Below, one piece after another: positions 1,746-26,096 of a stretch of DNA of 59,998 nt. The notes beneath the pieces are model-generated. The model saw nothing but the letters and a program-made list of their open reading frames with translations. It did not search any database and was not told the DNA's origin. The translations under genes were made by a program, and so were the position numbers. Origin of the DNA: Fidelibacterota bacterium (GTDB lineage Bacteria; Fidelibacterota; Marinisomatia; Marinisomatales; UBA1611); the NCBI GenBank assembly GCA_018674095.1, contig JABHAX010000013.1, forward strand, positions 1 to 59,998, written 5' to 3'. Every line of letters starts with the position of its first letter. The first letter of the stretch is position 1.

Positions 1746-1754
1746 TAGGAAAAC

Positions 1755-8782: not shown

Positions 8783-8815
8783 TTTCTATTTTTTTGAAAG
8801 AAATTTGTAATTATG

Positions 8816-8865: not shown

Positions 8866-8890
8866 AATAATTATTATAATTTTTTATCAT

Positions 8891-9640: not shown

Positions 9641-9730
9641 AATAATTGTCCTTTTATTTAATTTAAGTATTTATGTTTTTAGGTGTTCGAGGGTTCAATG
9701 CATTAACGCATGAACACTTTATACTTATCA

Positions 9731-10726
9731 CTACCACCGAATCGCGGCTGATGCCCATGTATAACCGGCGCCAAAGGCTGCGAGAATTATTGTATCTCCT
9801 GCCTTGATTTTCCCTTCTTCCACAGCCTCACACAGTGCTATCGGGATAGATGCTGCCGTCGTATTCCCATATCTTTGAATATTAGCATAAAATTTATCCA
9901 TGTTTACGCCCATTCTTTTTGCAACAGATTGGATAATTCTCAAATTCGCTTGATGGGGAATAATCAATGCAACATCATCCATGGAGAGATTATTTTTATC
10001 CAACGCTTCTTGAATAACCTCGGGAAAACGAACCACTGCATTCTTAAATACTTCGCGTCCATTCATAAAGGGTTCATATCTCTGTGCTTGTTCTATGGTA
10101 AGTTTGTTAATTTGGTTTAAACCAGATGATCCAGGGCCTTCCATCCATAAGTTTTTCATATCTTTCCCCTCGCTATGTAAATGAGTGGATAAAATACCAG
10201 CTTCATCTTGGCTAGGTTGAAGAATGACCGCACCCGCTCCATCACCAAAAAGAACAGAAATATCTCTTCCTTCTGTCGTTTTATTAATGAATTTTGACTG
10301 TGCTTCTGCACCAATCACAAGAGCAGTTTTATACATCCCAGATTGAATAAATTGATCTGCTGTGGAAAGAGCGTAAACAAATCCTGAACATGCAGCACGT
10401 AAATCAAAACAGCCGACATTTCTCAAACCCAGCATTTCCTGGAGTTGTGAACTCACGCCTGGGAAAAAATAATCGCTTGAAATAGTTGCCACAACTACGA
10501 GATCAATTTCTTCAGGGTTTATACCAGCATTTTCTATTGCCTTCTTTGCTGCAGGAAACGCAAGGTCTGATGCAGCTTCGTCTCCTTGTACCCAATGTCG
10601 TTCTTCAATACCGGATCGTGTTTTGATCCACTCATCCGAAGTGTCCATTAATTCAGTTAAATCTTGGTTTGTTACTACTTGACTGGGGACGTGATAGCCT
10701 ATCCCTTTTATGGCGCTTCTGATCAT
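9731..10726 (-). CDS. fabH: 3-oxoacyl-ACP synthase III (KAS III, FabH-type), copy A
   Basis: 331 aa; canonical Cys-His-Asn triad contexts (AACSGFVYAL, IPHQANLRI, GNTTAASIP). The start lies 3 nt after the stop of the upstream MMPL gene. Confidence 0.88.
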   Translation of the reverse strand: MIRSAIKGIGYHVPSQVVTNQDLTELMDTSDEWIKTRSGIEERHWVQGDEAASDLAFPAAKKAIENAGINPEEIDLVVVATISSDYFFPGVSSQLQEMLGLRNVGCFDLRAACSGFVYALSTADQFIQSGMYKTALVIGAEAQSKFINKTTEGRDISVLFGDGAGAVILQPSQDEAGILSTHLHSEGKDMKNLWMEGPGSSGLNQINKLTIEQAQRYEPFMNGREVFKNAVVRFPEVIQEALDKNNLSMDDVALIIPHQANLRIIQSVAKRMGVNMDKFYANIQRYGNTTAASIPIALCEAVEEGKIKAGDTIILAAFGAGYTWASAAIRW

Positions 10727-10729
10727 TTG

Positions 10730-13045
10730 TTAACTCCGTCCAATTAATTTTTTCTTTAATGATTCCGCAAGAGCTGCAAGCACTGTGAGTGTTCCAAGAG
10801 ATGTGGACATCATGGCGAAAACCATCAATCCACCAATATATTGGATTGATAAAAATGCCGAAAATAATAATGCACCAAATCCCATGTTAGATGCAGCATC
10901 CAAGATAATAGGATATCCCACATCATCCACGACTTCCCTGCTCAATTTATCTGCTGATACTGTTCTGGACAAACGACGGAATTGGGCAATGTAGTGAATC
11001 GAAAAATCAACACCAACTCCAATGATGATGGAGGACAGGAGTGCCGTAATATGGCTTAACTCAATTCCGAAATAACCCATAAAACCGAAATTAATAATGA
11101 CGGCAGATGAAAGCGGAATGACTGCTAAGAAACCCCATAAAATTCGTTTAAAAAATATGGATGCAATTACACCAATTACAAATAACGAAAATGTAATACT
11201 AAAGATGGATGATTTAATAATTAAAGTTACCAAATCCCGAAAAACAACCATCATTCCTGTAACATTAATTTTTAATTCCGGATTAAAATTTTCATCAATA
11301 TAGGCATCTATTTTTTCAACATAGCTAAAAATATCATCTGTTGACATAATTTTGCTCAAAGCGGTAACTAAGCCCACTTCATAATTATAATCAACCATGG
11401 AAGAAAAATCATCAGGATCACCGGACATAGAATACATGGTAAAAAGGTTATTCACTTTTTCACGATTTTCAGGAATGGTTTCAAATGCAATATCATCATC
11501 CATCACCGTCCTGTGCATTTGTTCCACCACATTTCCGATGGAATAACTGATAGTTACTTTTTCATCTATTTCCATAAAGTCCTGAAGAGCAATCATATCA
11601 GCTAATGTCCCCGGATCTTTCATATCACCTTCGATTCGGGCTCGGATGTCCATGGTTCCTGTTAGTTCTTCATCCATGAAGTCCATGCTGTCCCGAATTT
11701 CCGTCCCGGGTTTGAACATGCTAGCCATATTCACATCCACGGTAACTTTCATTAATCCAAACAAGCCTATGATGACAAAAATTGCCCCTGAAGAAAAAAC
11801 ATACTTTGGGTGACTCAGAACAAGTTTACCTAATTTATCGATCCCTCGTTCAAATAAACTGGGTTTGGATATAGCATTTGAATTAGCATCCCACTTTAAT
11901 AAACTAATGACAGCAGGCAACATCAGCGAACTCAAAAACCAAGCCCAAGTGATGCCCACACCAATGGTGACACCATAGCCAATCATGGGTTCTAACGGAG
12001 ATGAGATCATGGTTAAAAAAGCTGCGATTGTCGTAATGCTCGTTAAAAAGATGGGAATTAGCAAAGAATCCATGGTGGAAGCAACTGCGAGCCGAACATC
12101 ATTTTTTGAACGGAGTTCTTTAAAATATTTGGTCACAACATGAACACCATCCGAATTTGCAATCGTCAAAAGAATAATTGGCATGGACGTATTAGCCATA
12201 GTAAAAAGAAATCTTTCTGAACCCGTAAGTCGATAAATCCACCCCATAAAACCCATCATTGCAACGAGTGATAAACCTATCACCATCATAACCAAAGCCA
12301 CGCCTTTTGGGCTTCTCAAGTTTAGAAGCAGTATGGAAACCATGATCAGCATACCCATTTTCATAAGGCCTTGTACATCTTCTCGAATCATTTCTGGCAT
12401 GGTTCCGGTTACATAGGCATTCCCACCATAATGAATTTCATATCCTTTTAGAATCGGTTTAGTAATCGCAACCACTTCATTTCGGAAAACATCTAATCCT
12501 TTCGTATCATATGGTTGAATGATAACAACAATGTATTCATCTTTTTCACTGATGAGTCTAGTTTTAATTGTTTTATTCCGATCAAGATAATCCTTTATAT
12601 TATCTACATCTACTTGTGATAATTCCCGATCCGGTTGAAGATCGCCAACCTCCATAAATCCATCAATATTATCCATACGATTCATTCGAGAAACACTGGT
12701 GACTTCTTCAACTTTTTGTGAAGTTTCCAATTGGTCTGCCAAATCCCATGCTGTGGCAAATGCATCAGGCGTAAAAATCGTTTTATTTTTATGACCGAAA
12801 GCGATAAAAATCATTTCAGTACTTCCAAATTCATCTTGAAGTGCATCCCAAGACAAACGAGACTCTAAGTTTTTAGGAAGCATTTTCATGACATCATCAT
12901 CCACGACAAAAAATTGGAGTCCAAATCCCATGATAATTGTTGCGATAACAGACAATATAATAACGCGTATTGGGCGGTCTAAACTTTGGCGAATGAACCA
13001 TTGCCTTACAGGGTGATCAGAATAATTAAGTAGCGTGTTTTTCAT
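10730..13045 (-). CDS. RND-superfamily exporter, COG1033/MMPL (HpnN-like) type, copy A
   Basis: 771 aa; two 6-TM bundles with large soluble loops; motifs ANSDGVHVVTKY and GVGVDFSIHYIAQF. Paralog of 23808-26096. Confidence 0.85.
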   Translation of the reverse strand: MKNTLLNYSDHPVRQWFIRQSLDRPIRVIILSVIATIIMGFGLQFFVVDDDVMKMLPKNLESRLSWDALQDEFGSTEMIFIAFGHKNKTIFTPDAFATAWDLADQLETSQKVEEVTSVSRMNRMDNIDGFMEVGDLQPDRELSQVDVDNIKDYLDRNKTIKTRLISEKDEYIVVIIQPYDTKGLDVFRNEVVAITKPILKGYEIHYGGNAYVTGTMPEMIREDVQGLMKMGMLIMVSILLLNLRSPKGVALVMMVIGLSLVAMMGFMGWIYRLTGSERFLFTMANTSMPIILLTIANSDGVHVVTKYFKELRSKNDVRLAVASTMDSLLIPIFLTSITTIAAFLTMISSPLEPMIGYGVTIGVGITWAWFLSSLMLPAVISLLKWDANSNAISKPSLFERGIDKLGKLVLSHPKYVFSSGAIFVIIGLFGLMKVTVDVNMASMFKPGTEIRDSMDFMDEELTGTMDIRARIEGDMKDPGTLADMIALQDFMEIDEKVTISYSIGNVVEQMHRTVMDDDIAFETIPENREKVNNLFTMYSMSGDPDDFSSMVDYNYEVGLVTALSKIMSTDDIFSYVEKIDAYIDENFNPELKINVTGMMVVFRDLVTLIIKSSIFSITFSLFVIGVIASIFFKRILWGFLAVIPLSSAVIINFGFMGYFGIELSHITALLSSIIIGVGVDFSIHYIAQFRRLSRTVSADKLSREVVDDVGYPIILDAASNMGFGALLFSAFLSIQYIGGLMVFAMMSTSLGTLTVLAALAESLKKKLIGRS

Positions 13046-13649
13046 TATAAATATTTATAGCTTTTAATCCTTTTTCGTTAAAAATCCCTCGAGCTACAAT
13101 TTGGACAAATCCATGGATAGTATCTCGAATTGGGAGATCATTTTGGAGAAAGAATTCGGGTTGAAATGTGGAATTAATAATATTGATATAAACAATGGAC
13201 ATCGTTCTCATGTTGATTTCTTCACGCGCAAAACTTTGCTCTTGCGCATTTTTTAATATCGTATAAAAATCATCTTGATGCCCTAATCGGAATGCTTCTA
13301 CTTCTTTCCATATTTGGGGATATTGCGATTTGAGTTCTGCCAGATGGTTTACCGGGGTTCTACCCGCAAATTTGGAAATGTTTTCCATAATTTTCACAAA
13401 TTGAACAGCTGGATTAGGCTCATCTTTCATGACCGTTTCAAATACACCATTTATTTGTTCAAAAATATAAAGAATAATAGAATGAATTAAATTTTCTTTC
13501 GTAGGAAAGTGTTTATAAATCGTTTTTTTACTCATAGAGAGACGCTTTGCAAGCGATTCTACTGTAAAAGCACGAACGCCTGAGTTTGAAACAGACTCAA
13601 AGCCCTCGCCCAATATTTGATTTAATTGTTGATAATTTTTCACGGGCAA
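13026..13649 (-). CDS. TetR/AcrR-family transcriptional regulator
   Basis: 207 aa; HTH FTVESLAKRLSMSKKTIYKHFPTKENL. Non-ATG start (TTG 13649 or GTG 13643). Overlaps the MMPL start by 20 nt. Confidence 0.8.
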   Translation of the reverse strand: MPVKNYQQLNQILGEGFESVSNSGVRAFTVESLAKRLSMSKKTIYKHFPTKENLIHSIILYIFEQINGVFETVMKDEPNPAVQFVKIMENISKFAGRTPVNHLAELKSQYPQIWKEVEAFRLGHQDDFYTILKNAQEQSFAREEINMRTMSIVYINIINSTFQPEFFLQNDLPIRDTIHGFVQIVARGIFNEKGLKAINIYNEKHAT

Positions 13650-13724: not shown

Positions 13725-15179
13725 TTAGTTATTTATTATTGTTTGAAGTAGCATGATGACATCCGTGATAGTTACTGAACCATCACCATTATAATCTGCT
13801 GGGGGTGTCGATGTATATCCAAATCCGGAAGCCATATCTGCTACATGTAAAACATCTATAATATTAATGGATCCATCAAAATTCACATCGCCTAAAGTAA
13901 AATCAGGAAATCCACCGCCTAAATAATCCATGGGGAATTTTTGTCCACGTGCTATGAAAAACTGTGATCCACCGTATGTGTGACTCCATACTGTTTCATG
14001 ATCTTCTGTGACTTCGAACATTTTACCACTATCACAATCAGTAATAAAAGTATTTCCGTTGGGTAAGCGGTAAGCACCACCCTGCATTTGAGTATGGAAA
14101 GAACCAGAATGCATCCAAATTGGTTCATCTGGACCAAAGGGTTCATTGAGGGAAATATCATATAGCCCGTTACCGTTTAATGGAGGAATTAATTCAAAAA
14201 CAGCAGCCGTAGTATTCCCACCGTAATTATTATTGAATAAGATTAGATTTCCTGCGCCGGGATATCCTTCAGGAATCCAATTCACGCCATGTTGACCGGC
14301 AAGAAGATGATCTGAATTTGTCCCGCGATCATAGGCTTGCGGATTTCCCCATCGAAACAAATAATCACCACCCATTCCAGAGTTTCCTCCAGAATGACTC
14401 GCCGCTTCTTCTGTTGTAGTACTGTGATCGATAATATAAATCTCATCATGATGTCTGGAAGAAATGACGATTTGGTCTAAAACTTCATTGTAAGCAACAG
14501 CATTATAATGTTTCCAATCTCCGTTTGGGCCTCCGGGACCTTGGTTGCTTCCAGCACTTCCATAATTCACATCCTGCAATTCAGGATGATTTTCAATCAC
14601 ACCATAATTATCTAAATTTGGGTTCATATTCTGAATTAGATGGTCCCAAATGTGCCATTCCCAGATAATATTGACTTCATTTGTTCCCACCGGTTCAATT
14701 TCAAGAATAGCTTCTGCCCACATTTCGTTCAAAGAATTATCAATGGATTGACGACCAACAGCATAAGCTTCTGTGTCCGTTTTCTTTTCCCAGAGAATTA
14801 CGAGGATATTTCCATTTGGTAGTGGTTCAATATCATGATGGTGCTGATAGGTGTCATTAGCAAATTCATAAGACCAAAGAAGATCTCCGTCCCAATTGTA
14901 AGTTGAGATTCCGCCGCCAACGCCGCCAGCAGACATGGATGGATTTTGGACTTTATAAGGATAAATCAACGTGCTATCCTCCAATAAATAAGCCATACTT
15001 GCAGCACCGCGAGGGTGGCTCCAAGAATTAATAACATCTAAATCATTATCAACCAAAAAGGTTGAGAATCCATCACCACTATTTCCACCTTGTGTAGGAG
15101 AAAACAGTGTCATGCCGTTAAATACTTGTCCAAAAAGTTGACACGTAATAAATAGAAAAATAATTATGAATCGTTTCAT
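13725..15179 (-). CDS. ASST-like (aryl-sulfate sulfotransferase family) beta-propeller with C-terminal dockerin
   Basis: 484 aa; signal peptide; HHHDIEPLPNGNILVILWE, WHIWDHL and DWKHYNAVAYNEVLDQIVISSRHHDEIYIID resemble ASST-family motifs. The C-terminus has two Ca-loop repeats, DVNFDGSINIID and DYNGDGSVTITD (type I dockerin). Confidence 0.6.
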   Translation of the reverse strand: MKRFIIIFLFITCQLFGQVFNGMTLFSPTQGGNSGDGFSTFLVDNDLDVINSWSHPRGAASMAYLLEDSTLIYPYKVQNPSMSAGGVGGGISTYNWDGDLLWSYEFANDTYQHHHDIEPLPNGNILVILWEKKTDTEAYAVGRQSIDNSLNEMWAEAILEIEPVGTNEVNIIWEWHIWDHLIQNMNPNLDNYGVIENHPELQDVNYGSAGSNQGPGGPNGDWKHYNAVAYNEVLDQIVISSRHHDEIYIIDHSTTTEEAASHSGGNSGMGGDYLFRWGNPQAYDRGTNSDHLLAGQHGVNWIPEGYPGAGNLILFNNNYGGNTTAAVFELIPPLNGNGLYDISLNEPFGPDEPIWMHSGSFHTQMQGGAYRLPNGNTFITDCDSGKMFEVTEDHETVWSHTYGGSQFFIARGQKFPMDYLGGGFPDFTLGDVNFDGSINIIDVLHVADMASGFGYTSTPPADYNGDGSVTITDVIMLLQTIINN

Positions 15180-15312
15180 GGTTTATAAACAGTTTATTTT
15201 ATGATTTTGAAGACTTAATTTAACCTATAGATTCTTTTGGGTTTAAAAGGTTAAATATATTTTTAATTAACATCCTGTATCCCATCTTGAAATTTAACTA
15301 AAATTAATTCAA

Positions 15313-16395
15313 TTGGCACTTAAACGCATATTCAAAGTTTACACCGTTATCGGTAAAACGTTCGGCGCATGGATTTCACCAATATTTACGGGAATTGCCA
15401 TTGTTACGTTGCGCATTTTTGTATGGTTTGGGCAACAAATCGATAAAGTAATTTTTCCCGGTTTTAATCAGGCTCTAGAGAATCCCATTCTTATCGTAGG
15501 AAATCCAAGATCAGGGACAACCTTCCTGCACAGATTTTTAATCAAGAATGGATTTGGTGTAGGCTCTCAACTCTGGCAAATGGTGTATCCATCCATTTCT
15601 ATCCAAAAAGTCTTAAAGCCATTTTTACCCATCATGGAATTTATAAGTCCAGCTAAACATCATTCAACAGAAGCACATGAAACAAGCCTTTCATCTGTAG
15701 AAACGGATGATGTTTCACTTTTATTCCGATTTTTTGATGGATTCTTCTTGTACGGTTTTTTCCTTACATTCGATGAAAAAGATTTATTTGATTGGGTGGA
15801 CCCGAAAATTCGGAATACGTCAAAAAGAGATTTTGACTGGTTCGAGTCCATGTGGAAACGAAATTTGACATCGAACAATGGGCAGCGCTATATAGGAAAA
15901 CTTTTTAGTTTAAGTGGGAATCTTCCAGCGTTTCAAGAAAAATTCCCGGATGCAAAAATCCTTTATATGATTCGAGATCCATTGAGTGTAATTCCATCCG
16001 GATTAAGTTTAGTCACAGGTGTATTAGATAAAAAGTTTGGTTTTTGGTCTTTAGATGAAAAAATTCAAGAACGATTTATATCTAGACTTTATAAAGCCCT
16101 GGTTGAATTACTTACGAGGTTTCATGATGATTGGACCCACGATAGAATTGATAAAGAAAAAGTATTAATCGTCCGTTTTGATACCATGATGACTCAATTT
16201 GAATCTTTAATGAAACGAATCTCAGACTTCACTCAACACGAAATGACGGATGAACTAAGAAAGATTGTCCAAATTACAGCCGAAAATCAAAGAGGTTTTG
16301 AAAGTGGACATCGTTACGATTTAGAAAAATTTGGTCTTACTGAATCGCAAATTCGCCAAGATTGTGAAAAGATTTATCGAACTTTCTTAATTTAA
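15313..16395 (+). CDS. PAPS-dependent sulfotransferase with N-terminal membrane anchor
   Basis: 360 aa (TTG start); 5'-PSB-like loop GNPRSGTTFLHRFL and 3'-PB-like YMIRDPLSVIPS; N-terminal hydrophobic segment FGAWISPIFTGIAIVTLRIFVWF. Confidence 0.7.
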   Translation: MALKRIFKVYTVIGKTFGAWISPIFTGIAIVTLRIFVWFGQQIDKVIFPGFNQALENPILIVGNPRSGTTFLHRFLIKNGFGVGSQLWQMVYPSISIQKVLKPFLPIMEFISPAKHHSTEAHETSLSSVETDDVSLLFRFFDGFFLYGFFLTFDEKDLFDWVDPKIRNTSKRDFDWFESMWKRNLTSNNGQRYIGKLFSLSGNLPAFQEKFPDAKILYMIRDPLSVIPSGLSLVTGVLDKKFGFWSLDEKIQERFISRLYKALVELLTRFHDDWTHDRIDKEKVLIVRFDTMMTQFESLMKRISDFTQHEMTDELRKIVQITAENQRGFESGHRYDLEKFGLTESQIRQDCEKIYRTFLI

Positions 16396-16399
16396 AAAA

Positions 16400-16990
16400 A
16401 TGAAAAAACTTCTTAGTCTGTTTTTATTAAATCAATTATTCGCTTTGGACCTTCACGGCATTGAATTATTATCAAACTGGGAAATTTTAAAGGATGAAAC
16501 CATTCAAATTTCTTGGCAAAACTATCAAGGTTTTCCCGTTAGCAAAGCAGAAACAATTTTAAATCATTCTATCAAAGATGTATCTTTTGCGATTCAAGAT
16601 TTGGATCATTATCCGGAAATTTTTGACCGCGTTACTCAAACAATTCGACTTGAAAAAGATGTGATTCAAATTGTATTAGATATGCCTTTCCCTTTTGATG
16701 GACGAGATTACATTGTAAAATATTCTATTGAAAATCAAGACAATTATTGGGTTTTTGCTTATTCGTCAGTAGAACACCCAAAAGGAAGATTAGAACAAGA
16801 TCATGTTCGTCTCCCCAATGCTGGGGGAATTTGGATCCTGGAAAAAGTTAATGAATCTCAAACAAAAATTGTTTACGCATGGAATGGTGAATTATTAGGA
16901 AATTTTCCCGATATAGCTTTAACCCGCGCTTGGGTCACACAAGGAACGGAAGTATTGAATTGGCTGGATGAATTTCTTACTGCAAAATAA
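16400..16990 (+). CDS. Secreted START/SRPBCC-like lipid-binding protein
   Basis: 196 aa; signal peptide MKKLLSLFLLNQLFA. The pattern MPFPFDGRDYIVKY ... HVRLPNAGGIWILE ... TKIVYAWNGELLGNFP resembles the START fold. It starts 4 nt after the sulfotransferase stop and ends 3 nt before the OMP gene. Confidence 0.5.
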   Translation: MKKLLSLFLLNQLFALDLHGIELLSNWEILKDETIQISWQNYQGFPVSKAETILNHSIKDVSFAIQDLDHYPEIFDRVTQTIRLEKDVIQIVLDMPFPFDGRDYIVKYSIENQDNYWVFAYSSVEHPKGRLEQDHVRLPNAGGIWILEKVNESQTKIVYAWNGELLGNFPDIALTRAWVTQGTEVLNWLDEFLTAK

Positions 16991-16993
16991 ATT

Positions 16994-18421
16994 ATGACTA
17001 AAATCACTCCAATTTTTCTCCTAGCCTATTTGCTTGGAAGTGAACCATCTTTTGATATGAATGGCTATGTTGATTTTGCCCATATTTCAAGGTTATCAGA
17101 CTATTCTCTGATTGACATCCCTTTTCGAATGAGCGCCATAGATTTTTCCCATCAAAGTGAGAATATTTCACTTAACGGGAATTTCACATTGGAATATCAA
17201 ACCAGATCTGATGCTTATTTTTTAGGCTCTAAGGACCCACAAGATTTCCGATTGGACATGAGAGAGCTCTATACAACTTATAACAGTGACAATTTTGAAT
17301 TTCGGATGGGCAAGCAAATTCACTCATGGGGCAGCGTAGATGAAAATAGCCCAGTGGATAATGCCAGCGCATTTGATTATTATTATATTTTCTTTTTGGG
17401 TCGAGAACGAAAAATGGCGACCTTATCTGGTGCTCTGGATTACTATATAGGTAATCTAAAATTGAATGCCGTTTTCTCTCCAATTCATACTACGAATCGG
17501 ATCCCGTTGGGCGATGACCATTTCCCTATTTCACTTCCCATTTATCCCGAAGAATCTCAAATATTTACTATTTCGGAACTCCCATTTGAAGGCGGAATAC
17601 AAAGCACCTATTCTTTTGGGATGGGGGAAATATCTGCTTCTTACTATTCCGGATTTGATCGTGTCTTTAATTTTTCCGGTGTTAATGTTTACAGCAATGG
17701 AAGTCAAACCATATTTTCACCACCAGATCTCGTTTTCGGGTATCGAAAAACAAATGTCCTTGGATTTGGTCTAACATTTCTAAATCCATTTTTCATATTT
17801 CGCGGGGACTTCGCCCAGTTTAATACCCTGGATTTGAATGAATCCATCGACCGTCCATATTCAAATAGCAATTTGGCAGCCATTTACGATACTTTGGTTT
17901 TAAGTTTTCCTCTTCGTGAAAAAGCAAATTATCGACAAACGACTTTGCAAATAGAAACGGAACTTCCCTTTCAAATTAATTTTGTGGGTCAAATTTTTTC
18001 ACACGAAATAACTTCCTTTTCATCGGACACATTGCCAGATGTAGAAATAGATATTCCAGGTTTTGAATTTGACCCAGATTCCATGACGCCTGAAAATTTC
18101 TTCACACCGGGGATGGGTGTCCCTTTAGCAATTTTAACGAATAAAGCTGCCATCTTAATTTTGGATAAAACTTTTATGAATGAGCAACTCAACGTTTCTT
18201 TTACAACCATGCTGGACCTTGGCGATTATGAAGGCGTGGAAAGCATTTCTGGTTCATTAACGGAATACAAAATTGAATATAATATAACCCAGGATTTTTT
18301 AGGAATACTGGGTGTGACGAAAGTCATAGGATCAAAAGATCATCCGGATGGCGAACAATACCAGTTTAATAAAATGGAAGATTTTTCCCATTTCCGTTTT
18401 GAATTAAAATATTATTTTTAA
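16994..18421 (+). CDS. Outer-membrane beta-barrel, DUF1302-like (copy B)
   Basis: 475 aa; MGKQIHSWGSVDENSPVDNASAFDYYYIFF and C-terminal MEDFSHFRFELKYYF. Paralog of 7529-8782. Confidence 0.6.
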   Translation: MTKITPIFLLAYLLGSEPSFDMNGYVDFAHISRLSDYSLIDIPFRMSAIDFSHQSENISLNGNFTLEYQTRSDAYFLGSKDPQDFRLDMRELYTTYNSDNFEFRMGKQIHSWGSVDENSPVDNASAFDYYYIFFLGRERKMATLSGALDYYIGNLKLNAVFSPIHTTNRIPLGDDHFPISLPIYPEESQIFTISELPFEGGIQSTYSFGMGEISASYYSGFDRVFNFSGVNVYSNGSQTIFSPPDLVFGYRKTNVLGFGLTFLNPFFIFRGDFAQFNTLDLNESIDRPYSNSNLAAIYDTLVLSFPLREKANYRQTTLQIETELPFQINFVGQIFSHEITSFSSDTLPDVEIDIPGFEFDPDSMTPENFFTPGMGVPLAILTNKAAILILDKTFMNEQLNVSFTTMLDLGDYEGVESISGSLTEYKIEYNITQDFLGILGVTKVIGSKDHPDGEQYQFNKMEDFSHFRFELKYYF

Positions 18422-18432
18422 TATAAATTTTA

Positions 18433-18602
18433 GCCACCAAGATCGCGAATGTTCACGAAGGGAAAAAATGATATTTATATTGTCAATCGAAAGAAATGTA
18501 AACGCAAAGGCGCAAAGATTCATAACTAAAGTATTTGATCCGCTTAATGAATTGATAATTCAGAAATTTGATTATTTAGTGTATCTTAGCGTCCTTAGTG
18601 GC
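18433..18602. repeat. Imperfect inverted repeat built from degenerate 9-mers (NCNCNAAG units)
   Basis: Left arm GCCACCAAGATCGCGAATGTTCACGAAG (18433-18460). Centre ACGCAAAGGCGCAAAG (18502-18517). The right arm 18575-18602 reads GCCACTAAGGACGCTAAGATACACTAAA on the opposite strand, 19/28 identical to the left arm. Confidence 0.55.
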
Positions 18603-18616
18603 ACTATAAAACCTAT

Positions 18617-19582
18617 ATGAAAATTAAAATAACAGGGGTTGGTTTATATCTTCCTCCCAAAATCGAAACAGCAGAAGACATTGCACCAAAAATCGGAAAA
18701 TCGGTAGAATGGATCATTGAAAAATCCGGTGTAAATGAACGACGCGTTTCCATTATTGACGTGGACCAAATGGGTGCATTAGCAGGAAAAGAAGCTCTAG
18801 ACAATGGTGGAAAGCCTGATTTAATCATCAATGCATCCGGTGTCCCAAAACAAACTATACCGGACACATCCACATTTTATCAACGAGAATTAGGATTTGA
18901 AGGTATTCCATCTTTTAGTATTCATTGCACCTGTCTCTCATTCATTGCAGCATTGAATACGGCCGCTTCTTTGATTCACTCGAAATCTTACAAACGAATC
19001 TTAATTATTTCTTCAGATCGTGGAACCCGTGGACGAAATTTTGATGAACCGGAAAGTGCATCTCTCTTGGGCGATGGCGCAGCTGCTATCGTGATAGAAC
19101 CAGCTAAATCGGTTGATGAAAGTGAACTCATTTATTTTGATATGAAAACATTTCCCAGTTGCGCCAACTTAACGGAAGTCCGTGGCGGCGGAACCCATAA
19201 ACATCCCCAAGATCCAAATACAACATTGGCTGATAATTTATTTACCATGGATGGGCCGGCGGTGTACAAAATCGCCCGGAAGGAAGTGTATCGTATGATG
19301 CTGAAAACAATGAAAATAACCGGATTCAAGCGGGAAGATGTGGATTGGGTGATTCCCCACCAAGCTTCCGGAAAAGCAGTGGATGCCTATATTTCAACGG
19401 GAGGATTCGCCCAAGAAAAAGTGGTGAGTATTATTTCGGAATTTGGGAATTGTGTGGCTGCTTCTGTCCCCATGGCATTTGCCACAGCGGTAAAAGATAA
19501 GCGAATCAAACGAGGCGACCTTTTATTATTTATTGGAACCGGCGCTGGACTCTCCGCTGCCTGTGCGCTTGTTAGGTATTGA
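18617..19582 (+). CDS. Divergent KAS III-like condensing enzyme (copy B)
   Basis: 321 aa; Cys-His-Asn contexts IHCTCLSFIAAL, IPHQASGKAV, FGNCVAASVP. More divergent from FabH than copy A. Confidence 0.75.
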   Translation: MKIKITGVGLYLPPKIETAEDIAPKIGKSVEWIIEKSGVNERRVSIIDVDQMGALAGKEALDNGGKPDLIINASGVPKQTIPDTSTFYQRELGFEGIPSFSIHCTCLSFIAALNTAASLIHSKSYKRILIISSDRGTRGRNFDEPESASLLGDGAAAIVIEPAKSVDESELIYFDMKTFPSCANLTEVRGGGTHKHPQDPNTTLADNLFTMDGPAVYKIARKEVYRMMLKTMKITGFKREDVDWVIPHQASGKAVDAYISTGGFAQEKVVSIISEFGNCVAASVPMAFATAVKDKRIKRGDLLLFIGTGAGLSAACALVRY

Positions 19583-20644
19583 TTACTTCACTAAAATCAT
19601 TTTTCGAAATTGTGTATCCGAACCATCTTTAATCTTTATAAAATAAACCCCCGATGAAAATTTGGATCCATTCCAATGAATGGTGTGCGTTCCAGATTTA
19701 TAAATTTTATCATGTGTAATTAATTCTACTTCGTTCCCTAATAAATCATAAACACGAATATCCATTTTCCGATCATAGGGAATTGTTATTTCAATTTGCG
19801 TCCTTGGATTAAACGGATTTGGAAAAGGCTGTGAAGTTTTTAATTGGGTTGGAAAAGCATTTTGTGAAATGGATACATCATCACAATCCTGTGGTGCATA
19901 AACCGGAAAAGAATAATAAAACTGGTCCAGACTTAGTTCAAAATGTTCACTTTCTGCCACACAGGTTCCCACACTATCGCAAAGCATATTGGCGCCAATA
20001 GCAAAATAAGGATATGCTCCATTATCATCATTATTCCAGTCCAAATTAAGGTCGCAAAAACAGTCCGGGAGTGATGCCAGATTATTATTAAAGAGCCATA
20101 GGTAAGTCAGATTTGTTAAGGAACAAACGGACGCCGGAATCGAATCTAATTCATTATATCCCAGATCGAAAAAATACAAATTTTCTAAATTTCCAATACT
20201 GTCTGGCAATGTCATTAATACATTATTATTAATATAAAAAGATTGGAGATTTTCCATTTCACTAAAAGATTCCGGTAAAACAGAAATCCGATTCCACTCT
20301 AAATACAGAGAAGCTAACCCAGTCCAATTCCCAACATTTTCAGGTAATGTATAAATCGTATCATTTACACCGGCACTATTGCCATAATTCCCAGCCACCA
20401 AAAACCGCAAACGGCCGTTAAACCAAGTTTGTGTCCCCAATTCCAAAGGTGAATCATAATCCAAATTATTGATAAAGATTAAACTGTCCAAAACTTCAAT
20501 ATCTTCATCAAAGAGACACGTATCGCCCACAAGGATTGTAACATTCGATGGGAGTTCAGAATAATAAGAATAGGCGCTATCACATTGGCCGTAAAGCTCC
20601 GATAGAACTAAAAATGTAATAATAATGAGAAAATATTTTTTCAT
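19583..20644 (-). CDS. Leucine-rich-repeat protein with T9SS C-terminal sorting domain
   Basis: 353 aa; LRRs (LPESFSEMENLQSFYINNNVLMTLPDSIGNLENLYFFDLGYNELDSIPASVCSLTNLTYLWLFNNNLASLP); tail FPNPFNPRTQIEI...SGVYFIKIKDGSDTQFRKMILVK. Confidence 0.8.
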   Translation of the reverse strand: MKKYFLIIITFLVLSELYGQCDSAYSYYSELPSNVTILVGDTCLFDEDIEVLDSLIFINNLDYDSPLELGTQTWFNGRLRFLVAGNYGNSAGVNDTIYTLPENVGNWTGLASLYLEWNRISVLPESFSEMENLQSFYINNNVLMTLPDSIGNLENLYFFDLGYNELDSIPASVCSLTNLTYLWLFNNNLASLPDCFCDLNLDWNNDDNGAYPYFAIGANMLCDSVGTCVAESEHFELSLDQFYYSFPVYAPQDCDDVSISQNAFPTQLKTSQPFPNPFNPRTQIEITIPYDRKMDIRVYDLLGNEVELITHDKIYKSGTHTIHWNGSKFSSGVYFIKIKDGSDTQFRKMILVK

Positions 20645-22707
20645 TATTTCAAAAATAATATTTTTTGAGTTTCTGATTTTTGCCCGGATGTTAATTTCAC
20701 AAAATAGATTCCCGATGGATTCCTTTTAGCATTCCATTTTGTTTCATGATTCCCGGATTCAATAATATCTTCAAATAATGTTTCAACTACTCGACCACTT
20801 ATGTCAAGAACTTTTAAAGATATCAATTCTGAATTCTGAACATTATATTGAATCGTAGTTTTAGGATTAAATGGATTTGGAAAGGCTGGAAATAATTCAA
20901 ATTTATGAGGAATAGGTTCTGATTCTGTCGATAATGGGAAGGTAAAACCATTAACAAGTGTGGTTTTTTCTTTTTCAGGGTGATATTCCGATGTAACAAT
21001 CAATGTAATTGGATTCCCATTTGAACTTTCCGTGACATTCCCTGTAAATGTAATTGTTTCGATTTGATTAGGGAATAGTTCAATTTCGCCTGATTGATTC
21101 CCGAACCAATCTGCTTGATCTGAAAGAGAGAAAGATAAAGCCAAATCATATTCACTCTCATTATGGAGGGTGAAAGAAATTTCCGATGAGCCAGATGGCA
21201 AATACACCCCTTGATTTTCACCGCTTACCAAGAAATTATCAATCATGACGCTATAAGCGGCGGGGAATAAACCGGGAATTCGATGTGCACGATAGACAGC
21301 ACCACTAGGTAAACTCAAATTATAATTAGCTTCCCAAACAATATTACCATTTGAATTGACTTCCAAACTTCGTCCGCCACCGCCAACCGTGGTGACCATT
21401 ACATTCCCATTTTCCATTTTTTGAGCATTTCCTGACGCGAAGCCAAAAAGGTCATCCGGTAGTTCATACGACCAAACTAAATCAGCATTATTTTGCGAAA
21501 TTGCTAATTCTATAGCCCGGGATTGAGGGTCATCAGTTCCGCGAAATTCCGGTGCCAAATTTCCATTATCAAATGTGATAATATTTCCGTTGTTTAAAAT
21601 TTGCAATGAATGTTGAAAACTGAATCCAATCTCATTTCCAAGTGTAACTTGGCCTGATGGCATTTCATGTCCCAGATTCCAAATAATGTCGCCAGATGGA
21701 TAATCGAGTTTTGTGATTCGAGACAAGTGTCGCGTGGAAAAATAAATTGCACTTTCAATTTCATCAAAAATAACAGCATTTACATGAGTCCAATCGTAAT
21801 GAAGATCAATATATGCTTGGCTCCATGTGCCACCAAATTGGTCATAATCCATCATGCTGAAATGGTCAAAAACACTCCATTCCCATACGACATCTCCAGT
21901 TTCGTTATCCCACTCCATAAGTTTATCACCAATCCAAATAAATTCCATGGTAACACCATCTGCTTGAAATCCCAATCCTTGGAACAAAGGAGTCCAATCG
22001 CCAATTGGAATGGGTCCAACAGCACTTGTTTCGACAATTCCGAGATAATTCCCATTTGGGAGTTTAATAAGATCGTGGTGAAGGAATTCATCATTGGGCT
22101 CTTCCCAAATTGTTTCACCTTCAAATGTAAATTCTTTCCCGGGTAAATTATTTTCCGAGCCGGAGACAAGTTCACATCCGAATACATCTCCAAATTCACT
22201 CGTGCTGTAATAGACTAAGTTTTCATTTCCGGAATTCCATATTTCTCTACCAGTCACATCTATGGCTGCTGAAAAATAATTGAAGAATGCGCCAAAAACT
22301 GTAATACCGTCTTGAATTTGGTTGGCAATTGAAATAGTTGTTGTCGTTTCTGATAAAGGTGATCCGGTTGAAAAAGAAAATGAATTGGTCCAGGGTAATG
22401 CCATGCCGTTGTTTCTCATTGCTCGAATTCGCCAGTAATATGTTTTTTCCCATTCAATGGTAGCTTGCTCGATGAATACTAAAGTTTGATTATTTGCTTG
22501 AACAATTGTATTGGAGAATGATGAATTCTCAGAAATTTGGATTTCGTAATAATCAGTTATTGGTTCTTGTTCCCACTCAAATAATACATGGAGATGATTC
22601 AGGATTGCTCCATTTTCAGGTGAAAGTAATTCAGCGACAAGTGGTGGGTTTATTGTAATAATAAATATCAAAAAATATAAATAAAAATGGTTCATTATTT
22701 CGCGCAT
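20644..22707 (-). CDS. ASST-like beta-propeller with T9SS C-terminal sorting domain
   Basis: 687 aa; LHHDLIKLPNGNYLGIV, WEWSVFDHF, DWTHVNAVIFDEIESAIYFSTRHLSRITKLDYPSGDIIWNLG; tail FPNPFNPKTTIQY...SGIYFVKLTSGQKSETQKILFLK. Its TAA stop overlaps the ATG of the LRR gene (TAATG). Confidence 0.6.
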   Translation of the reverse strand: MREIMNHFYLYFLIFIITINPPLVAELLSPENGAILNHLHVLFEWEQEPITDYYEIQISENSSFSNTIVQANNQTLVFIEQATIEWEKTYYWRIRAMRNNGMALPWTNSFSFSTGSPLSETTTTISIANQIQDGITVFGAFFNYFSAAIDVTGREIWNSGNENLVYYSTSEFGDVFGCELVSGSENNLPGKEFTFEGETIWEEPNDEFLHHDLIKLPNGNYLGIVETSAVGPIPIGDWTPLFQGLGFQADGVTMEFIWIGDKLMEWDNETGDVVWEWSVFDHFSMMDYDQFGGTWSQAYIDLHYDWTHVNAVIFDEIESAIYFSTRHLSRITKLDYPSGDIIWNLGHEMPSGQVTLGNEIGFSFQHSLQILNNGNIITFDNGNLAPEFRGTDDPQSRAIELAISQNNADLVWSYELPDDLFGFASGNAQKMENGNVMVTTVGGGGRSLEVNSNGNIVWEANYNLSLPSGAVYRAHRIPGLFPAAYSVMIDNFLVSGENQGVYLPSGSSEISFTLHNESEYDLALSFSLSDQADWFGNQSGEIELFPNQIETITFTGNVTESSNGNPITLIVTSEYHPEKEKTTLVNGFTFPLSTESEPIPHKFELFPAFPNPFNPKTTIQYNVQNSELISLKVLDISGRVVETLFEDIIESGNHETKWNAKRNPSGIYFVKLTSGQKSETQKILFLK

Positions 22708-22736: not shown

Positions 22737-23504
22737 TTAAAATTTTATTAAATACGATTCAGAAAATATTTCATCTTTCAATCCAACATTTGATTGAAAA
22801 TTTTTGATTTCCATCACTGTTCGCTTACCGTCCTCTTTAGCCATGACCATTTTCCCCGGTAAAACAAATCCATTTGATTCGATAAAATCTAAAATTGTTA
22901 ACGTTTTTAATTTTTGAGTTTCTTGAGAATAAAATTCAATTTTTTGAATTTTCCAATATTCAGAATTCACCCAAATTTTTCTTGAATGATATGTACTTTC
23001 GTTTTTTGGCCACGCCATTATTACACGGCAATGTCTTCCATTTATATATTCCACGCCGATAAAAGCTAATGAATCTTGTCCAAGTTTACGGCTTTCCAAA
23101 TCTTCATAAATAAAATCAGTTCCCATGAAGGATTTAGATCGTTCCTTTGATTTTACACGCTTAACCGTTTTAAGTTTTGGTAGAAAAAACCATTGGTCCG
23201 TTTTTCCATTTTTATAAGCCCAAGTCAATAATCCAGTCCCTTTTACTGTTTGGGGTTTTTTTAATCGAGCCAAGGATTTAAATTTGAATATCCCACTTTT
23301 ATAATTTTTTTGGAATCGAGTGAATTCACGAACTTTTATTTTTTCTTTTCCACGTTTAATACGAATAATTTCTAATTTTATATCAGAGATGGATGTATTC
23401 GGTTTGGTAACATTCAACACTTTTCCCATAATGTCAAATGCGGTCATTTCCTGCCCAATACCCATAGAAAGACAGCAAATGGATATAAATATTTTTTTAA
23501 TCAT
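22737..23504 (-). CDS. LolA-like outer-membrane lipoprotein-sorting / periplasmic lipid carrier protein (copy B)
   Basis: 255 aa; signal peptide; WFFLPKLKTVKRVKSKERSKSFMGTDFIYEDLESR. Paralog of 8891-9640. Confidence 0.65.
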   Translation of the reverse strand: MIKKIFISICCLSMGIGQEMTAFDIMGKVLNVTKPNTSISDIKLEIIRIKRGKEKIKVREFTRFQKNYKSGIFKFKSLARLKKPQTVKGTGLLTWAYKNGKTDQWFFLPKLKTVKRVKSKERSKSFMGTDFIYEDLESRKLGQDSLAFIGVEYINGRHCRVIMAWPKNESTYHSRKIWVNSEYWKIQKIEFYSQETQKLKTLTILDFIESNGFVLPGKMVMAKEDGKRTVMEIKNFQSNVGLKDEIFSESYLIKF

Positions 23505-23811
23505 TTTTACTATTATTATACTTGATGAATAAAAGTGAAATGGGTGTGAGTGAAATAATCAAAAGAGACAATGTGATATAATCCTGTTTGTATTTCAATT
23601 CATAATATCCAGCAATTTGAAGACAAATAAATACATACCCAATCATAATAAAATCAAAATAAGATTTAACTAAAAAATATAAATAATCCATAACAGATCC
23701 ATTGGGAATGGGATTTACATTATTCGCACTCCCAAATCCGTATAGAACTATAAGGCAAGATAATATTAAGAAAATGGTACTGTAAGTTTTATCTTTTTCT
23801 TCTGTTATCAT
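23497..23811 (-). CDS. Small integral membrane protein (3 predicted TM helices), unknown function
   Basis: 104 aa hydrophobic ORF. It overlaps the MMPL stop by 4 nt (ATGA-type) and the LolA-like start by 8 nt, which argues for translation within the operon. Confidence 0.45.
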   Translation of the reverse strand: MITEEKDKTYSTIFLILSCLIVLYGFGSANNVNPIPNGSVMDYLYFLVKSYFDFIMIGYVFICLQIAGYYELKYKQDYITLSLLIISLTPISLLFIKYNNSKND

Positions 23812-26096
23812 CGATATAAGAATTTAGGGTTAAGCAAACTGATTAATGCTGGAAGAGTTGCCAATGCACCGAATAAACAAAATGAGATGGAAGCCATGAC
23901 CAATATTCCAAATATTTGTACGGGAACAAATACCGAAAATAACAGAGCCGAAAATCCAACAATAACGGATAAGCCATTAAAAAGAATACCTTTTCCTGAA
24001 ATAAGAAATGTATTGGCAATAGCCTCATCCAAGGTATCTCCATATTTAATATGGTCACGTAAATGCCACAAAAAATGAACCGTATAATCCACACCAACAC
24101 CCACAAGGATTCCGGTTAACATGGATGTAGTCATATTCAATGGAATATCTAAATATCCCATGAGACCAAACATCATAGCTACCGATGCAACCATGGGAAG
24201 CGTGGCGAGTAATCCTCCCGTAATAGATCTAAATACCAAAGTCATAATAATAAAAATAATAAAAATAGAATAGGCTAAACTCACCATTTGACCTTGCAAT
24301 ACTAGGCGCGTCAGTACACCCAATAAGGCTGCGCCTCCTGTAATTTCCATAGGAGCATCATCATAAAAATTGGCCAAAATATATTGATCTGTATCTTCAA
24401 CGATTTCTGCAATTGTAATTGTTTGAACTTCCTTTAACCTGAGAAAAACTTGCGTAAAAGATGGATCTTCCATATCATCTAACATCAAATCAAAATCATC
24501 TCCATCTCCCGTGATAGAATACAAAAACATATATTGAGAAATCAATTCACGATCATCAGGAATCACTTCATAAGTCGGATCACCGCCATTAAACCCGGCG
24601 TTCATTTTCTTTATCACATCCACAATGGAATATGATTTGGTCACAATTTCGTGAGCATCCTTTATATGATCAGTAAGCATTTCAATATTTCGTAACAATT
24701 CCGGATCGTAAATATCACCTTCAACAAGAATATGCATTTGTGTTGATCCGCCAAAGGCTTCACTGATTTTTGTATTGGCAATCCTTAATCTGGAATCTTC
24801 TGGAAAATAATGGTCAGGATTGGTGTCAACTTTTAATTTAGAAATGCCCATTGAGAGCCAAATGCCAATGGTTAATAGAAAGATTAAAGTTGGGATTCTA
24901 TATCGAGTAAATCCTCTGCCCAGTGAAACCAAAATATTATTTATGGTTGTTAAACCATTCGTTTTAGTTAAATAAGTTGGACGAGGCAACAGAACCAACA
25001 CCGATGGAATCAAGAAAATACTTAAAATAAAGGCCACCAGAATCCCGAATGAAATGAGCAATCCCATTTCACGAACCCGTGGTAATGCATGAGATAATAG
25101 GCTCATAAAACTAATCATTGTGGTTAACCCTGCCAAAAAAATGGGAACGCCTAGTTTACGAATTGTTTTTCGTAGAATTTTTCCCCGTGTGGCTTCCGGA
25201 TCTAATATAGTGTATTCATAATAATGAGAAATAATATGAATCCCATAATTATTTGCGATTGCAATTAACATAACTGGAATCAATGTGCCAATGAATGTTA
25301 CCGAAATATTAAGCCAGCCCATAACCCCGAAGGTCCAAATAATAGAGAACCCCACAACAAAAAAAGGTAGAAAAACACCAGTCCAGCTACGGAAAGTTAT
25401 CATAAGAAGTAAAATTCCTAACCCTAATGCAATTGGGGTATATACACGAAGGTCACGTTGCATATTTTCAATAATCGTCGCTCGAGTAATGGGTAAGCTG
25501 GATACGTAAAAATTTTCCGGTTGACTAAAGCGATTGACCAAACTGAATACTCTTTGTCGAAATTCAAATTCATCATAGTCAAATGATGAAATAATCTGGC
25601 CAATAAAACACAATTTATTAAAATCATTTGAAACCAAATTTCCAACGATTCCCGATTGTTTTAATTTTGATATTAATTCACTTAAGCTTACAGAATCATT
25701 TGGAATTTCAATGAGTAAAGGCTCAATCTCAAAGCCACCATCTTCTGGCAGAATATGCTTTTGGGTAAAAATTGACGTGACATTTCCAATGAAGTCAATA
25801 GATTCCAGCGAATCTTGGAATGCAGAAAGTTTCGTGAGTGTGGCATGGGAAAAAAGGCTATCTGATTCAACCGCAATAATTATAATATCGCTACCGGAAA
25901 AAAGCTCATCCACTTTTTCCATGGATTGAACAATTTCATGATTTCGCGGAAGCATGGATTTAACTCCCGGATCCAACTCTAATGAAAAAAGTTTCCATCC
26001 TAATATCACTGTTATAAAAATTACGCCAGCTATAATTGTCCGGGGATAATGGGAATCAAAATCAAATAAGTGTCTGGAGAATTCTCTAATATTCAT
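23808..26096 (-). CDS. RND-superfamily exporter, COG1033/MMPL (HpnN-like) type, copy B
   Basis: 762 aa; motifs ANNYGIHIISHY and GVGVDYTVHFLWHL; same topology as copy A. Confidence 0.85.
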   Translation of the reverse strand: MNIREFSRHLFDFDSHYPRTIIAGVIFITVILGWKLFSLELDPGVKSMLPRNHEIVQSMEKVDELFSGSDIIIIAVESDSLFSHATLTKLSAFQDSLESIDFIGNVTSIFTQKHILPEDGGFEIEPLLIEIPNDSVSLSELISKLKQSGIVGNLVSNDFNKLCFIGQIISSFDYDEFEFRQRVFSLVNRFSQPENFYVSSLPITRATIIENMQRDLRVYTPIALGLGILLLMITFRSWTGVFLPFFVVGFSIIWTFGVMGWLNISVTFIGTLIPVMLIAIANNYGIHIISHYYEYTILDPEATRGKILRKTIRKLGVPIFLAGLTTMISFMSLLSHALPRVREMGLLISFGILVAFILSIFLIPSVLVLLPRPTYLTKTNGLTTINNILVSLGRGFTRYRIPTLIFLLTIGIWLSMGISKLKVDTNPDHYFPEDSRLRIANTKISEAFGGSTQMHILVEGDIYDPELLRNIEMLTDHIKDAHEIVTKSYSIVDVIKKMNAGFNGGDPTYEVIPDDRELISQYMFLYSITGDGDDFDLMLDDMEDPSFTQVFLRLKEVQTITIAEIVEDTDQYILANFYDDAPMEITGGAALLGVLTRLVLQGQMVSLAYSIFIIFIIMTLVFRSITGGLLATLPMVASVAMMFGLMGYLDIPLNMTTSMLTGILVGVGVDYTVHFLWHLRDHIKYGDTLDEAIANTFLISGKGILFNGLSVIVGFSALLFSVFVPVQIFGILVMASISFCLFGALATLPALISLLNPKFLYR

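Follow-up and report, generated by a model that had tools for sequence, protein, structure and literature searches.

Two-step sulfation is known from the caprazamycin and liposidomycin pathway, which, as related in papers that cite Tang et al. (2013), involves the type III polyketide synthase (PKS) Cpz6 and the sulfotransferases Cpz8 and Cpz4. Cpz8, which depends on 3'-phosphoadenosine 5'-phosphosulfate (PAPS), sulfates triketide pyrones, and these are then used as donors by the aryl-sulfate sulfotransferase (ASST) Cpz4 (PMC4257720; PMC6731281). According to a 2026 review (PMC13426309), what bacterial ASSTs do physiologically and which donors they use in nature is still unidentified, caprazamycin being the sole exception. 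Here, we analysed a window of 59,998 nt from contig JABHAX010000013.1 (all coordinates are window positions), which carries a module of genes for a PAPS-type sulfotransferase (ST), a START-domain protein, an outer-membrane beta-barrel, a leucine-rich repeat (LRR) protein and two secreted ASSTs. Near-identical homologs bear the names Candidatus Marinimicrobia, Neomarinimicrobiota or Fidelibacterota, which places the window in the SAR406 lineage. We tentatively read this module as a two-step sulfation system, and give this reading somewhat less than an even chance: a lipophilic sulfate ester, formed at the inner membrane, would be exported and serve the surface ASSTs as sulfuryl donor. The features concerned, including transport genes that employ an MMPL/HAE3-type resistance-nodulation-division (RND) pump, and sorting domains of the type IX secretion system (T9SS), are as follows:

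13725-15179, minus strand: ASST1, a secreted beta-propeller of aryl-sulfotransferase-like type, independent of PAPS and with a dockerin at the C-terminus (Pfam Arylsulfotrans, 8e-20; Arylsulfotran_2; Dockerin_1)
15180-15312: divergent intergenic region of 133 nt between ASST1 and the ST operon, presumably a shared control region
15313-16395, plus strand: ST, a PAPS-type, Stf-like sulfotransferase (Pfam Sulfotransfer_3)
16400-16990, plus strand: START-domain protein with signal peptide, presumed periplasmic lipid carrier (structure prediction with AlphaFold2 (AF2) and Foldseek)
16994-18421, plus strand: DUF1302-like outer-membrane beta-barrel of 475 aa, AmeA-like, paralog of 7529-8782
18422-18616: spacer of 195 nt, lineage-specific
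18617-19582, plus strand: divergent condensing enzyme resembling beta-ketoacyl-ACP (acyl carrier protein) synthase III (KAS III), accessory member (Pfam ACP_syn_III, ACP_syn_III_C)
19583-20644, minus strand: LRR protein with T9SS C-terminal sorting domain (Pfam LRR_8, Por_Secre_tail)
20644-22707, minus strand: ASST2, an aryl-sulfotransferase-like beta-propeller with N-terminal Ig-like domain and T9SS sorting domain (Pfam Arylsulfotrans, 2e-27; Por_Secre_tail, 2e-12)
22737-23504, minus strand: LolA-like (TP_0789-like) periplasmic protein, in the same direction as ASST2 (Pfam LolA_like, 2e-48)
23497-23811, minus strand: 104-aa protein that overlaps both adjacent genes and has three hydrophobic segments
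23808-26096, minus strand: MMPL/HAE3-type RND transporter, presumed inner-membrane exporter (Pfam MMPL, 5e-41)

Like the caprazamycin locus, the module brings together in one place an ST of the PAPS type, an ASST that works without PAPS and a condensing enzyme of thiolase fold, and the proposed logic would be the same, a small lipophilic sulfate ester taking over the sulfuryl group from PAPS and delivering it to an ASST. The parts differ. The Marinimicrobia ST is of another subfamily (Sulfotransfer_3/Stf-like, with a hydrophobic N-terminal extension); the condensing enzyme is KAS III-like and often absent, whereas Cpz6 is a type III PKS; the ASSTs carry T9SS or dockerin domains, and START, DUF1302-like barrel, LRR and MMPL/LolA genes are added. 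Moreover, the caprazamycin locus is an antibiotic cluster, whereas the module is chromosomal and conserved within a marine phylum. The available Cpz8 fragment (partial, derived by optical character recognition (OCR) and containing errors) begins MKIIGAGFGRTGT, with the P-loop at residue 5 and no N-terminal extension, and a tblastn comparison of the ST with this partial OCR-derived fragment gave no significant match. On this partial sequence, orthology of the ST to Cpz8 was rejected for lack of similarity and for the different architecture, and the module would thus be a functional analog of the caprazamycin relay, built from different parts.

Relatives of the ST were collected from 243 species-representative genomes, and gene context was analysed for the best 80 of the 243 and for 3 further loci (83 loci), using the window proteins as queries on all 83; denominators below are loci with enough flanking sequence. 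The best 80 loci are labelled Marinimicrobia or unclassified ('uncultured bacterium'), except for one contig labelled Winogradskyella (L062), a metagenome-assembled genome (MAG) with a Marinimicrobia-type locus and an ST of 60% identity, which is probably misbinned. Among the papers searched, none relevant linked Marinimicrobia with sulfotransferases or ASSTs. An earlier note on this DNA had proposed the four plus-strand genes for ST, START, barrel and KAS III as a sulfated-lipid pathway. Its gene coordinates and intergenic distances (4, 3 and 195 nt) are exact, and the motifs it quoted are all present (PRSGTTFLH and IRDPLSVIPS in the ST; CTCLSF, HQAS and GNCVAAS in the KAS III-like enzyme). 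All four are conserved, with their reading frames, in as many as 83 related loci, far more than expected by chance. As a pathway unit, however, the four-gene set left out the two secreted ASSTs and the LRR protein, which are constant partners. The START gene follows directly on the ST gene in 77/77 loci, and the barrel gene lies downstream of START in 52/52; ASST2 is present in 50/52 and the LRR gene in 51/52 loci. ASST1 lies directly upstream of the ST in divergent orientation in 66/70 loci, the other four having LRR and ASST2 in this place, and an ASST adjoins the ST in 81/83. The constant module consists of ASST1, divergent from ST-START-barrel, together with LRR and ASST2. Gene order varies in three rearrangements with an unchanged gene set, one being the co-directional string ASST2-LRR-ST-START-barrel-KAS-ASST1. 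In the window, the minus-strand string MMPL-104aa-LolA-ASST2-LRR is joined by overlaps or gaps of at most 29 nt; its 104-aa protein had no Pfam match and is syntenic in more than 20 loci.

Both ASSTs look catalytically competent by their conserved residues. The ASST profile, covering both paralog families, aligns to residues 348-490 of E. coli AssT (3elq), and H356, R374 and H436 of the latter correspond to H224, R242 and H297 in ASST1 and to H308, R326 and H366 in ASST2; the His/Arg/His set is invariant or near-invariant in 18 sequences. Of these, H436 is the histidine of catalysis and is shared by all known aryl sulfotransferases (ASTs) (PMC13426309). The best match of ASST2 in the PDB was 9kf4/9kf6, deposited as 'Sulfotransferase' (2e-15). 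Like E. coli AssT and the Desulfitobacterium ASTs, the module ASSTs belong to the beta-propeller family with a His/Arg/His active site; unlike these, they carry export tags (a dockerin in ASST1, a T9SS sorting domain in ASST2), have Ig-like and LRR parts added, and show genetic linkage to an ST of the PAPS type. In one relative (L059, 13220-16804), ASST2, LRR and T9SS tail are fused into one protein of 1194 aa. In another (L078, 13230-14447), the LRR protein has a dockerin and a PSCyt1 domain.

The identification of the ST as PAPS-type, made in the earlier note, is borne out by both PAPS motifs, the Sulfotransfer_3 assignment (1.2e-18; 68.7 bits, cut-off 27) and an Stf-like fold. The 5'-phosphosulfate loop (GNPRSGTT) occupies residues 63-70, with PRSGTTFLH starting at residue 65, and S67, G68, T69 and T70 are invariant among relatives down to ~24-25% identity; in the 3'-phosphate motif R221-D-P223...S229, contained in IRDPLSVIPS, neither R221 nor S229 varies even among relatives of 25% identity. 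The AF2 model (predicted local distance difference test (pLDDT) score of 77) gave Stf9 (2z6v, TM-score 0.62) and Stf1 (2zq5, TM-score 0.58) as top Foldseek matches; by sequence and predicted fold, these mycobacterial enzymes (M. avium and M. tuberculosis, respectively) are the nearest solved relatives, at 17-18% identity. Small-molecule sulfotransferases follow in the structural ranking, and glycan (heparan-type) enzymes appear only below rank 40. The earlier note had named a capsule or glycan context of related STs as an observation that would speak against lipid sulfation; relatives of the ST adjoin lipid or polyketide condensing enzymes instead, and with fold and gene context both pointing elsewhere, a glycan or capsule sulfotransferase was rejected. 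An aromatic-rich segment (residues 138-161, 11/24 residues aromatic) is invariant and points to a site for hydrophobic acceptors or to a loop that faces the membrane.

The N-terminal transmembrane segment described for the ST is a real hydrophobic segment (residues 19-39, Kyte-Doolittle 1.86; predicted helices 2-17 and 22-47), and the hydrophobic N-terminal ~50 aa are conserved even at 25% identity. It contains an invariant Arg34, however, and may be only a membrane-associating helix. Four basic residues precede the hydrophobic stretch, so that by the positive-inside rule a true N-in transmembrane helix would place the catalytic domain in the periplasm. A monotopic or amphipathic membrane anchor appears at least as likely as a transmembrane helix.

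The earlier note had recommended a check for PAPS-synthesis genes. None was found in the window, and in 8 related Marinimicrobia loci a bifunctional sulfate adenylyltransferase/APS (adenosine 5'-phosphosulfate) kinase lies within the module, inserted between ASST2/LolA-like and MMPL (859-860 bits, cut-off 669). In L064 (17252-18901), this PAPS synthase follows directly on ASST2, and in L078 (16676-21062) the string reads ASST2, LolA-like, CysQ (291 bits, cut-off 229), PAPS synthase, MMPL. The position of the PAPS synthase within the module ties PAPS-dependent sulfation, the ASSTs and LolA/MMPL transport into one unit. A relay running in reverse, with PAPS harvested from external aryl sulfates, is disfavoured by the presence of PAPS synthase and CysQ in the module of these relatives.

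In a wider search of 1.84 billion cluster representatives, the ST family comprised 130 clusters at E<=1e-30 and was seen to extend well beyond Marinimicrobia, to Bacteroidales, Myxococcales, Nannocystaceae and Victivallaceae. Eight contexts were inspected (L084-L091):

L085, Bacteroidales MAG: ASST, type III PKS-like enzyme and ST, with overlapping genes
L088, Myxococcales MAG: ASST, acyl carrier protein (ACP), acyl-AMP ligase, type III PKS-like enzyme and ST
L086, Nannocystaceae: type III PKS-like enzyme and ST
L087: type III PKS-like enzyme, ST and TauE, with APS kinase, CysD and CysN nearby
L089, L090 and L091 (L090 a Bacteroidales MAG; L089 and L091 Bacteroidota-like, with SusC/SusD and T9SS): OleA-like KAS III, ST, convergent ASST with T9SS tail and PCMD protein, beside SusC/SusD
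L084: ST without partner

A condensing enzyme lies immediately upstream of the distant ST in 7/8 contexts and an ASST within two genes of it in 5/8; the ASST of the Myxococcales cassette is 35% identical to ASST1. The condensing enzymes of these cassettes are not orthologous to one another. The type III PKS-like enzymes matched Pks18 and Pks11 best, two enzymes that form alkyl-pyrones with long chains; the Pks11 entry bears the title 'alpha-pyrone synthesis polyketide synthase-like'. The KAS III-like enzymes of the Bacteroidota cassettes match Xanthomonas KAS III entries, which we take to be OleA; an HQP motif is present in them, as is the Glu-Pro position that has been considered in connection with PpyS. 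Pyrone-forming members exist in the type III PKS-like, the OleA-like and the CorB/MxnB-like kinds of condensing enzyme, and the pyrone-forming PpyS is related to OleA-like enzymes. This convergence of the three kinds is suggestive.

The KAS III-like enzyme of the window is of the CorB/MxnB-like kind by its best PDB matches (CorB, 4e-58; MxnB, 2e-56), with the best FabH at ~1.5e-44. It is indeed a divergent enzyme with the active-site contexts that had been noted, C106 (CTCLSF), H248 (HQAS) and N278 (GNCVAAS) forming an intact triad that is invariant in orthologs; it stays below the NCBIfam cut-offs for FabH (NF006829, 224 against 249; TIGR00747, 207 against 292; NF005541, 272 against 402) and is only 27% identical to the canonical FabH of the window. 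Its Marinimicrobia orthologs all have HQAS and are without the proline of the CorB-type HQP motif (CorB P266), which the CorB paper links to non-decarboxylative chemistry. The enzyme may be a bona fide CorB-type pyrone synthase, as the PDB matches would favour, yet the HQP proline is missing. It had also been counted into the proposed pathway, but is not a constant member of the module. The gene stands directly after the barrel gene in 39 loci and is missing in ~25 (~40%), scattered over the ST tree, and hence is an accessory member of the module. The spacer before it (18422-18616), described as repeat-filled, contains one 22-nt direct repeat of 73% identity and weak AT-rich inverted repeats; the corresponding spacer in relatives measures only 7-27 nt. 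It is therefore not repeat-rich, and its length of 195 nt is specific to this lineage. A repeat-rich regulatory spacer was rejected on the same grounds, the single repeat being weak and the spacer missing in relatives.

For the 196-aa product of 16400-16990, structure prediction and Foldseek search agree on a START fold behind a signal peptide, as the earlier note had supposed. The AF2 model (pLDDT 89) has a helix-grip fold, and the top 31 Foldseek matches were all START domains (E down to 5e-10), the best being ACOT11 (myristate-bound), Xanthomonas 3qsz, StarD4 and BmCBP, with TM-scores of 0.7-0.78. The family profile matches 3qsz (0.007) and STARD3. With Pfam START (PF01852), the window protein itself gave no match, and 15/34 orthologs did (best E 9e-07). 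A secreted START domain had been called unusual for a bacterial envelope system; since the bacterial START protein 3qsz was crystallised without its first 24 residues, a possible signal peptide, a leader-bearing precedent may exist. We presume the protein to be a periplasmic lipid carrier. BstABC, the sterol transport system of Methylococcus (PMC10942540), consisting of an MMPL-family RND pump, a periplasmic binder and an outer-membrane-associated protein, would offer a similar architecture, as there the pump passes a lipid to a soluble periplasmic carrier; it differs in substrate class and in carrier fold, which in the module is a START domain.

The beta-barrel recognised after the START gene in the earlier note is DUF1302-like and of outer-membrane type, with signal peptide and C-terminal aromatic residue. 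It is a paralog of the protein at 7529-8782 (31% identity, 2e-59). The DUF1302 profile (PF06980) matches this paralog (6e-06) and 4/18 family members; the barrel of the window had no match. All orthologs have a hydrophobic leader (signal peptide) and a C-terminal aromatic KY[FYS]F or similar. No solved structure related to the barrel family was found. Together, DUF1302, LolA-like and HAE3 proteins form a known hydrophobe transport set, AmeABCD (PMC6394551). The AmeABCD-type HAE3 systems of Castellaniella and Pseudomonas (PP_0765/0766: DUF1302 and DUF1329/LolA-like, with RND) share barrel, LolA-like protein, HAE3/MMPL pump and hydrophobic substrates with the module, whereas the module has a START protein beside the barrel and a coupling to sulfotransferases, and no AmeC/BNR-like gene was seen.

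From these components, two-step sulfation could proceed in four steps. First, a lipophilic hydroxylated acceptor would be made, in this genome probably with help of the CorB/MxnB-like KAS III, perhaps a lipid of alkyl-pyrone or phenol type. Second, the membrane-associated ST, by homology a PAPS-dependent enzyme, would sulfate this acceptor on the side of the inner membrane that faces the cytoplasm. Third, to judge from family and synteny, the MMPL/HAE3 pump would extract the sulfate ester, START and/or the LolA-like protein would ferry it through the periplasm, and the DUF1302-like barrel would pass it to the surface. Fourth, the exported ASSTs, which have the catalytic residues, would use the ester as an aryl-sulfate-type donor, free of PAPS, for extracellular or surface acceptors; one ASST would work with, or fused to, the LRR protein, and the desulfated carrier could be recycled.

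Several points weigh against this reading. All four steps are predictions from sequence, and both acceptor and donor are conjectural. The ST is not, as far as the partial fragment goes, an ortholog of Cpz8, and with its N-terminal segment as an N-in transmembrane anchor, it would have its catalytic domain on the periplasmic side, a misfit with the use of PAPS. The window lacks a PAPS-synthesis gene. The KAS III-like enzyme has HQAS in place of the motif with the proline tied to non-decarboxylative chemistry, and the ~40% of loci without it would need another source of the carrier, or another molecule in its part. The MMPL/LolA pair is not always adjacent, an MMPL gene being found within ~10 kb in 19/26 loci with full flanks. 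START and barrel are absent from the cassettes of Bacteroidota and Myxococcota, so that it is their adjacency that ties them to the relay.

The best surviving alternative is that of the earlier note, in which ST and KAS III make a structural or protective sulfolipid of the outer membrane as end product, exported by MMPL, START and barrel, with the ASSTs being separate or only remodelling it. Some members of the ST family have been auto-named Stf3-type lipid sulfotransferase by the Joint Genome Institute (JGI), the nearest solved relatives are the mycobacterial Stf enzymes, and START, DUF1302-like barrel and MMPL are handlers of lipids or hydrophobes, all of which agrees with an end-product lipid. 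A precedent also exists. In the adp cluster of Streptomyces davaonensis, a type III PKS, AdpST and a PAPS cassette give sulfated alkylresorcinols as end products (PMC12135136), which keeps the end-product model alive as a rival. There, as here, a condensing enzyme adjoins a PAPS-dependent ST, and the PAPS cassette lies in the locus (cf. L087 and the 8 Marinimicrobia loci); in contrast to the module, adp has neither an ASST nor genes for envelope transport, and the pathway ends with the sulfated lipid itself. What an end-product lipid explains poorly is the adjacency of ASSTs, near-universal in Marinimicrobia and recurrent in Bacteroidota and Myxococcota, which is hard to account for without shared sulfuryl chemistry; in addition, the KAS III gene is dispensable, and acyltransferase, PKS and polar-head genes typical of sulfolipid loci are absent. 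The comparison with the sulfolipid-1 (SL-1) locus of M. tuberculosis, drawn in the earlier note, is loose for a similar reason. With the mycobacterial Stf and sulfolipid loci (Stf1, 2zq5; Stf9, 2z6v; Stf3 for sulfomenaquinone; SL-1 with MmpL8), the module shares the nearest solved structures and a nearby MMPL gene, but it has no equivalents of Stf0, Pks2 or PapA and belongs to a diderm envelope with START, barrel and ASSTs. A search for SL-1-type components gave no Stf0-family match for the ST and no PKS or PapA acyltransferase in the window, leaving MMPL as the only common element. Two-step sulfation as in caprazamycin, with a sulfated lipophile as sulfuryl carrier and not as end product, would be the better analogy. 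Of the proposed sulfated-lipid pathway, the PAPS-type ST and the secreted START protein thus stand, while a sulfated lipid as end product ranks below the relay, and we regard it as unlikely.

Distinctly less probable is a catabolic or scavenging module, in which the ASSTs would remove sulfate from aryl sulfates of the environment or exchange it among them, barrel, START and MMPL would import the aglycones for beta-oxidation, and the ST would detoxify or trap phenols. It would fit with the beta-oxidation operon adjoining the locus (1155-7428), which is syntenic beside the module in many relatives, with the Bacteroidota cassettes lying beside SusC/SusD pairs, with a 645-aa sulfatase with F5/8 type C domain found between the KAS III and LRR genes in one Marinimicrobia locus (that of P0474), and with Pseudomonas fitness data, according to which DUF1302 and DUF1329 genes are important for growth on fatty esters. 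Against this stand the embedded PAPS synthase and CysQ, which point to net biosynthetic sulfation, the repeated coupling of the ST family to biosynthetic condensing enzymes, acyl-AMP ligase and ACP, and the fact that characterised HAE3/MMPL pumps export lipids.

Very improbable, finally, is that ST and ASSTs are alternative routes to one sulfated surface lipid, the ST using PAPS inside and the ASSTs re-sulfating outside from exogenous aryl sulfates, since this, although matched by co-occurrence data equal to those for the relay and by the nature of ASSTs as reversible ping-pong enzymes among phenolic compounds, has no precedent, needs abundant external aryl-sulfate donors and leaves the LRR fusion unexplained.

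On the other side of ASST1, the window contains the beta-oxidation operon and a second transport set (7529-13649, minus strand):

1155-7428, plus strand: TetR, acyl-CoA dehydrogenase, thiolase and FadB-like protein (beta-oxidation operon)
7529-8782, minus strand: DUF1302-like barrel, second copy (Pfam DUF1302, 6e-06)
8891-9640, minus strand: LolA-like protein
9731-10726, minus strand: canonical FabH (above the NCBIfam cut-off, 414 bits)
10730-13045, minus strand: MMPL/HAE3 transporter
13026-13649, minus strand: TetR

The FabH embedded in the second set is of the housekeeping type, and this slot lacks FabH in many relatives. A promoter scan of the control region at 15180-15312 gave nothing above shuffle expectation, and no structured RNAs or tRNAs were found in the window. 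Likely signal-peptide cleavage sites just before Gln (after Gly or Ser) are seen in the products of 13725-15179, 19583-20644, 7529-8782, 8891-9640 and 22737-23504; the orthologs of the LRR protein retain YGQCDS, cut between G and Q, and cleavage before Gln resembles the 'Q-rule' of Bacteroidota. Other large T9SS cargo proteins are one with FG-GAP repeats (27174-29396) and a 1290-aa Big_5 protein (52636-56508). Further along the minus strand lie two tandem paralogs of glyceraldehyde-3-phosphate dehydrogenase (GAPDH; 36864-38881), adjoining genes for class I aldolase and phosphofructokinase, and a lipid-related string (45903-50112) of class V aminotransferase, fatty-acid desaturase, PAF-acetylhydrolase-like lipase and TMEM164-family protein.

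The pairing of a PAPS-type ST with ASSTs is conserved over ~80 genomes at species level in a phylum abundant in the ocean, and is met again in Bacteroidota and Myxococcota, a breadth which suggests endogenous sulfuryl carriers as a general strategy, and not as a curiosity of one antibiotic pathway. The logic of two-step sulfation itself was already known; new would be its envelope-spanning, T9SS-linked and phylum-wide form with a secreted START protein. As a proposal, it describes how a diderm cell could sulfate targets outside, beyond the supply of PAPS in its cytoplasm, and offers candidate functions for secreted bacterial START proteins and for the poorly understood DUF1302/LolA-like/HAE3 sets. 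The most general form, possible and on balance doubtful, would be cell-surface sulfation throughout Marinimicrobia and, by simpler cassettes, in many Bacteroidota, with a membrane-permeant sulfate ester of pyrone or phenol type being loaded from PAPS, ferried by MMPL, START and barrel, and unloaded by ASSTs displayed through T9SS. If true, this would name long-sought natural donors of bacterial ASSTs and give a bacterial START domain a role as lipid shuttle of the envelope; and if such extracellular sulfation is real, it would be relevant to how organosulfates arise in marine dissolved organic matter.

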